Positions 33,959 to 33,989 of a DNA stretch of 64,000 nucleotides are shown in pieces. Position numbers and translations under genes: made by a program. The notes beneath the pieces are model-generated. The model was not told where the DNA came from and did not search any database. It worked only from the letters and a program-made list of their open reading frames with translations. Location of the stretch: NCBI RefSeq assembly GCF_050320075.1, contig NZ_CP190018.1. One strand, written 5' to 3'. Source of the DNA: Escherichia coli (lineage in GTDB: Bacteria; Pseudomonadota; Gammaproteobacteria; Enterobacterales; Enterobacteriaceae). How positions within the stretch are numbered: position 1 is the stretch's first letter; the number at the start of each line of letters is the position of its first letter.

Positions 33959-33989
33959 TGCATTTCATTCCGTTCTGATGGCATTTCAT
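33959..33989 (+). promoter_or_regulatory. YpdB (LytTR response regulator) binding site in the yhjX promoter
   Basis: Direct repeat TGCATTTCAT (33959-33968), 11-bp spacer, GGCATTTCAT (33980-33989), 84 bp upstream of yhjX ATG; matches the reported GGCATTTCAT-N11-GGCATTTCAT motif. Confidence 0.65.

Follow-up and report, generated by a model that had tools for sequence, protein, structure and literature searches.

Regulators of the LytTR family usually act from direct repeats that share one helical face immediately 5' of a poor -35 element, at promoters that depend on the activator; the repeats bound by AgrA and other LytTR proteins sit directly upstream of a weak -35. Operators have reportedly been located for two paralogous pyruvate-sensing LytS/LytTR systems of Escherichia coli: that of YpdB, in the yhjX promoter of K-12 MG1655, is said to have been described by Fried, Behr & Jung in 2013 (J Bacteriol 195:807), and that of BtsR (YehT), in the btsT/yjiY promoter, by Kraxenberger et al. 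in 2012.

LytTR operators, AgrA boxes included, have been characterized as two repeats of 9–11 nt with 11–13 nt between them (Behr, Heermann & Jung 2016, PMC4847170). For YpdB, the K-12 oligonucleotide used for SPR, CGCGTCATTCATTCCTGAACTAAGGCATTTCATTCCGTTCTGATGGCATTTCATGCCG (Table 1 of PMC4847170), comprises all nucleotides protected in DNase I footprints. Mutant oligonucleotides in the same study identified the upstream copy as site A: inactivating A abolished all binding in vitro, and inactivating site B left one binding event, at A. The authors proposed a sequential ‘AB-BA’ model of binding by YpdB monomers, and stated that ‘flanking nucleotides’, which they did not specify, affect expression in vivo. 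Conservation of the motif in a few other species has also been reported, as has the lack in Salmonella of both the YpdA/YpdB system and a YpdB-type target (PMC5552118).

Here, we analyse a 64-kb stretch of DNA (the window; position 1 is its first letter) in which a first-pass annotation had noted a direct repeat upstream of yhjX. The repeat shares its two-copy layout and its spacing range with the AgrA boxes of agr P2/P3 in Staphylococcus aureus; these differ in having an unrelated consensus and a Gram-positive host, and in that AgrA functions as a dimer, while monomeric binding is reported for YpdB. The BtsR operator of btsT/yjiY is likewise a direct repeat, with the same 21-bp start-to-start spacing, upstream of a transporter gene and served by a paralogous pyruvate-sensing LytS/LytTR system; it differs in motif (ACC[G/A]CT[C/T]A), regulator and target gene. 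The closest match of all is the YpdB operator of K-12, with which the comparison below begins.

Results

The window is E. coli sequence. The 2.3 kb surrounding the repeat has a match in 5422 of the 5426 complete E. coli genomes, and in several of these the identity is 100%; the annotation of matching genomes gives the gene order yiaD-bisC-yiaC-tag-yhjY-yhjX-eptB-tRNA-Pro-RtT-dppA. The operator-regulated gene, yhjX (34073–35281, plus strand), encodes an MFS transporter and putative pyruvate transporter of 402 aa (Pfam MFS_1; annotated as yhjX in identical genomes) that is identical to K-12 b3547 at 401 of 402 residues. A Shine-Dalgarno sequence, AGGA, can be read at 34061–34064, 8 nt 5' of the ATG. 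The gene 5' of yhjX is yhjY, whose product has an autotransporter beta-domain, and the intergenic region is 228 bp long. An Rfam scan found no match in the yhjX promoter or 5'UTR; its sole matches were tRNA-Pro and two RtT elements downstream of eptB. These occupy 37388–37800, upstream of dppA, with the tRNA followed by the two RtT elements in tandem (RF00391; 101.6 and 98.7 bits). One RtT is annotated here in CFSAN061763 and two in YZLc1-3, so copy number differs between strains. Elsewhere in the window, an IS150 (IS3-family) transposase lies between glyS and hokA at about 24008–25377, as mapped from the identical genome YZLc1-3.

The two copies of the repeat are TGCATTTCAT at 33959–33968 and GGCATTTCAT at 33980–33989, and the sequence across the operator reads CTGAACTAA-TGCATTTCAT-TCCGTTCTGAT-GGCATTTCAT-GCCG. 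The geometry given in the first-pass annotation is accurate: the spacer, TCCGTTCTGAT at 33969–33979, is exactly 11 bp, and the last base of the second copy is 84 positions 5' of the A of the yhjX ATG (34073), with 83 bases between them. A separate repeat finder returned a 15-nt repeat, GCATTTCATTCCGTT / GCATTTCATGCCGTT, at a start-to-start spacing of 21 bp. Lone 10-mers with at most one mismatch show no enrichment (12 found in the window, 7.3 expected), whereas the two-copy arrangement is unique, with one match against 0.06 expected when up to three mismatches are permitted. We rejected as a second site a lone perfect GCATTTCATGCC 12-mer on the minus strand at 9644–9655, which has no partner 21 bp away and which we attribute to chance. 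That 12-mer lies on the antisense strand within a 274-aa ORF (9113–9937; bax in related genomes).

The resemblance to the YpdB motif proposed in the first-pass annotation also holds. The locus, the gene, the two repeats and the 11-bp spacer are those of the K-12 operator; 19 of the 20 bases of the two 10-mers match the published sites, as do 56 of 58 bases when the K-12 footprint oligonucleotide (PMC4847170) is aligned with 33936–33993. The two differences, C>A at 33938 and G>T at 33959, both fall on bases that vary between species. The operator published for P_yhjX is a two-copy direct repeat of GGCATTTCAT with an 11-bp spacer (21 bp between starts), and it sits in the yhjX promoter; yhjX is the sole reported target of YpdB. 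All of this is found here, within the synteny yhjY-yhjX-eptB. The general LytTR layout (repeats of 9–11 nt, gap of 11–13 nt) is present as 10 + 11 + 10 nt. Site A, the high-affinity site, extends over 33959–33971 on the plus strand; its published 10-mer (33959–33968) is TGCATTTCAT here and GGCATTTCAT in K-12, and its conserved 12-mer core, GCATTTCATTCC, is at 33960–33971. Site B, of low affinity and dependent on A, extends over 33980–33992 on the same strand, with the published 10-mer GGCATTTCAT at 33980–33989 and the 12-mer core GCATTTCATGCC at 33981–33992. Described as 12-mers, the operator is two cores with a 9-nt gap. Judged by its sequence and position, the repeat represents sites A and B of the YpdB/PyrR operator published for P_yhjX; it is effectively an allele of that operator and hence already known.

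To describe its conservation, we collected 80 yhjX orthologue loci from species-representative genomes of the Enterobacteriaceae, including Escherichia, Citrobacter, Enterobacter, Kluyvera, Buttiauxella, Kosakonia, Lelliottia, a Klebsiella oxytoca record and others; some counts below are over 79 loci. All 80 species have two copies of the 9-nt core GCATTTCAT exactly 12 bp apart, with 0–3 mismatches summed over both copies, and the start-to-start spacing of 21 bp is invariant. Most columns of the core, and the [T/G]CC that follows it, are invariant or nearly so. The spacer between the 12-mer cores (33972–33979, with site B counted from 33980) is poorly conserved in sequence, at 0.2–1.1 bits per column, and of invariant length in all 80 species. 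The base that precedes the core, and with which the published 10-mer starts (position 1), is variable: site A (33959) has G in 52 species and T in 28, and site B (33980) has T in 41 species, G in 31, C in six and A in two. Because position 1 varies while the core columns are nearly invariant, the constrained unit is a 12-mer, GCAyTTCAT[T/G]CC, that lacks the first G of the published GGCATTTCAT. Adjoining site B on its 3' side is a TTTT tract (33994–33997, plus strand), with T at each of its four columns in 77–79 of 79 species; it may bend the DNA, act in the manner of an UP element or extend the site.

At 33959, where the published 10-mer of site A begins, the window has T and K-12 has G. This is the only difference within the two 10-mers, and it was not mentioned in the first-pass annotation. 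A second substitution, at 33938 (A here, C in K-12; plus strand), is linked to it and lies just 5' of a third copy of the repeat described below; among species, this flanking base can be G, C, T or A. We counted alleles as exact 70-mer matches among the 5426 complete E. coli genomes. The K-12 allele is present in 3570 genomes and the allele of the window in 1626 (about 30%), UTI89 included; a further allele, found in 15, combines T in site A with A as the first base of site B. All other Escherichia species representatives in the set have G at both positions, so the T allele is probably derived within E. coli. The operator of UTI89 is identical to that of the window. In that strain, chromosomal yhjX mRNA, measured by RT-qPCR, surges upon acidification, and the surge is absent from a btsS ypdB mutant (PMC9765748). 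The mutant is a double mutant and the stimulus was acid rather than added pyruvate; moreover, the lux reporter used in UTI89 has the K-12 promoter, such that only the RT-qPCR bears on the T allele (PMC9765748). Taken together, the variation between species, the frequency in the population and the UTI89 RT-qPCR argue that G>T at 33959 is probably without functional effect. Both substitutions that separate the window from K-12 fall on an unconstrained base directly 5' of a repeat copy, a pattern that looks like neutral drift beside constrained sequence.

We built a position weight matrix (PWM) from the A and B 12-mers of all species. In 75 of 80 species, the best PWM match other than A and B was at offset -21, where scores averaged 4.5; A and B scored about 21 and the background -43 ± 12. 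In the window, this third, weaker, in-register copy is GTCATTCATTCC at 33939–33950 on the plus strand, starting 21 bp 5' of the site A core and lying within the published DNase I footprint. Its consensus is G[T/C]C[A/G]TTCATTCC, and most of its columns carry about 1.6–2.0 bits, similar to those of A and B; TTCATTCC itself is repeated exactly at 33943 and 33964, a spacing of 21. The published footprint, taken from the oligonucleotide that begins at 33936, spans almost exactly three 21-bp units and reaches 24 bp upstream of site A. Since inactivation of site A abolishes binding, the third copy cannot bind YpdB alone at ≤50 nM. Sites A and B differ consistently at position 10 of the 12-mer: 77 of 79 species have T there in site A, and 77 of 79 have G there in site B (33969 T and 33990 G in the window). 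This T/G difference is a candidate reason for the roughly 10-fold difference in affinity between A and B, which exists despite their identical 10-mers. In the yjiY oligonucleotide (Table 1 of PMC4847170), too, a further degenerate copy, GCCGCTCA, can be seen by eye some 20 bp 5' of ACCGCTTA, a hint that both pyruvate-sensing LytTR systems may have a three-copy layout.

A degenerate copy of the 12-mer is also present in inverted orientation at 34004–34015 (minus strand; reverse complement GCACTTTATGCC), between the predicted -35 and -10 elements, with a PWM score of about 11.3–11.4. In 37 of 79 species, an inverted copy at +22/+23 from site B gives the best match on the minus strand. Eight species have a perfect GCATTTCATGCC (at +23 from the start of the site B core), among them Yokenella, Pseudescherichia vulneris, Kosakonia and Phytobacter; in Enterobacter, Lelliottia and the Citrobacter freundii group, the copy is either degenerate or missing. 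In Escherichia, position 7 of its core is T; in all 160 A and B sites of the column-conservation analysis, this base is C. Because T replaces an invariant C, and because the copy is positioned outside the footprint, it is probably not bound in E. coli. If an inverted copy were occupied, its location between -35 and -10 would be expected to make it repressive. The accessible published accounts of the YpdB operator, among which we do not count Fried et al. (2013), name neither the third copy, the T/G difference at position 10, the inverted copy nor the conserved -10 described next.

Conservation downstream of site B consists of the TTTT tract, a C-rich stretch and then a block, CTTCG[T/C]TAT[G/C]GT. 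Within this block, 77 of 79 species have TAnnnT at +41/+42, counted from where the site B core begins; from this we predict a -10 element, TATGGT, at 34023–34028 (plus strand). An alternative -10, TAAAGT (34008–34013), was rejected: it is supported in 18 of 79 species as compared to 77 of 79 for TATGGT, and UTI89 has a C at 34013 that destroys the hexamer. Site B is about 30 bp upstream of the conserved -10. The predicted -35 position is CCCAGG, with no match to consensus, and transcription is predicted to start near 34033–34036. A literature search found no published yhjX transcription start site (TSS), and the SPR figure legends of PMC4847170 carry no coordinates. Relative to the predicted TSS, the core of site B would be at about -54 to -43, that of site A at -75 to -64 and the third copy at -96 to -85. 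Downstream of the repeat, a sigma-70 scan detected no consensus promoter, which is what activator dependence would predict; the only match of the scan, at 33831–33859, is over the end of yhjY, upstream of the operator. A 14-nt inverted repeat (33946–33959 / 34053–34066; 86% complementary, arms 93 nt apart) has its distal arm over the yhjX Shine-Dalgarno sequence, and its proximal arm ends at the variant base 33959. We dismissed it as a meaningful element and attribute it to chance; an RNA structure is unlikely because the proximal arm is upstream of the predicted TSS.

The regulator genes ypdAB (pyrS-pyrR in current K-12 annotation) are located outside the 64-kb window, and we therefore looked at proxy genomes. 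The pair belongs to the core genome: K-12 ypdAB DNA has a match in 5422 of 5426 E. coli genomes, in 5414 of them at ≥80% coverage. Positions 20001–45000 of the window are 100.0% identical to several genomes, including MRSN346647, which has intact ypdA (1698 bp) and ypdB (735 bp) genes in the K-12 context alaC-ypdA-ypdB-ypdC. Its YpdB, with Response_reg and LytTR domains, is identical to that of K-12 over 244 of 244 residues. The first-pass annotation had named absence of ypdAB as an argument against pyruvate control; in the proxies, the 5422 genomes and MRSN346647 alike, the genes are there. Given the match to the published operator, the yhjX induction in UTI89 with its identical site and ypdAB in the proxy genomes, its view that yhjX is ‘likely to retain pyruvate-responsive control’ is fair. 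Rare disruptions are seen in two individual E. coli genomes. In OkiPb01677 (NZ_AP042483.1), the match extends over only 34% of the ypdA-ypdB query and carries an annotation for ypdB alone, which may reflect a natural loss of ypdA. In DX6 (NZ_CP126345.1), an IS1 element is inserted inside site B, after GGCATTTC, at about 453–853 of the retrieved locus; this natural disruption parts the operator from whatever is downstream.

Discussion

We are highly confident that the repeat is best explained as the known YpdB operator with a G>T variant, one that is expected to work normally because the variant base is outside the constrained 12-mer. For K-12, the literature has established that external pyruvate is sensed by YpdA/PyrS (in UPEC also by BtsS, through cross-talk), leading to phosphorylation of YpdB; one YpdB monomer then binds site A (core 33960–33971 in the window), which permits a second to bind site B (core 33981–33992), and yhjX is transcribed in a pulse. 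The repeats, 21 bp apart, would be on one face of the helix, with site B about 30 bp before the -10 and abutting a C-rich, non-consensus -35. RNA polymerase would presumably depend on the activator because site B abuts this poor -35.

An effect of the variant on regulator binding deserves the most attention among the alternatives, since the changed base is in the 10-mer of site A, the high-affinity nucleating site on which all binding in vitro depends, and since flanking nucleotides are stated to affect expression in vivo (PMC4847170). The allele is also common and lineage-associated. If G>T at 33959, with the linked C>A at 33938, did measurably alter affinity for YpdB, the strains with this allele (about 30% of E. 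coli, ExPEC, for instance UTI89, among them) would differ in the pyruvate threshold or the pulse amplitude of yhjX. We nevertheless consider this improbable. Over 80 species, site A has either G or T at this position and site B any of the four bases, beside columns that are invariant, which is the signature of an unconstrained base; the substitution at 33938 is likewise on an unconstrained base; and UTI89, with the same allele, has a strong surge of yhjX mRNA, which its btsS ypdB double mutant lacks.

To two further explanations we give almost no credence. The repeat could be a chance occurrence or a relic without a regulatory role in this strain, for example if the regulator were missing: ypdAB is outside the window, and rare natural disruptions do exist, as shown by the IS1 in site B of DX6 and by the genome with 34% ypdAB coverage. 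Such a reading has to contend with an expectation of only 0.06 occurrences even with three mismatches, with an arrangement that is kept in 80 of 80 species, and with the presence of ypdAB in 5422 of 5426 genomes, intact in the nearest one, alongside an intact yhjX. It is no more credible that the site is used mainly by a regulator other than YpdB, such as its paralogue BtsR/YehT. The two LytTR systems are interconnected, and induction of yhjX in UPEC depends on BtsS (PMC9765748, PMC5552118); however, the reported cross-talk runs from the kinase BtsS to the regulator YpdB, not from BtsR to operator DNA (PMC9765748). Furthermore, the BtsR site of P_yjiY differs (ACC[G/A]CT[C/T]A-like), and P_yjiY DNA was the control fragment in the SPR study of YpdB (PMC4847170).

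Identification of the repeat as the YpdB operator is thus correct but ordinary. It re-identifies a textbook-level E. coli regulatory site and has little value as a discovery; the strain variant is common, apparently harmless and probably neutral. The refinements to the operator are modest, and some may have appeared before, in Fried et al. (2013). A tentative reading, which we rate as possible rather than probable, is that the yhjX operator is an array of three in-phase copies (33939, 33960 and 33981), joined in some genera by an inverted fourth over the core promoter, and that the weak upstream copy is a real YpdB contact. If so, this third contact, together with the T/G difference at position 10, would explain both the gap in affinity between A and B and the reach of the footprint 24 bp upstream of A, and the inverted copy could help to end the expression pulse in those species where it is perfect. 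For work on LytTR regulators, the 12-mer unit, the T/G at position 10 and the third in-register copy are targets for mutagenesis directed at the A/B asymmetry of the ‘AB-BA’ model.
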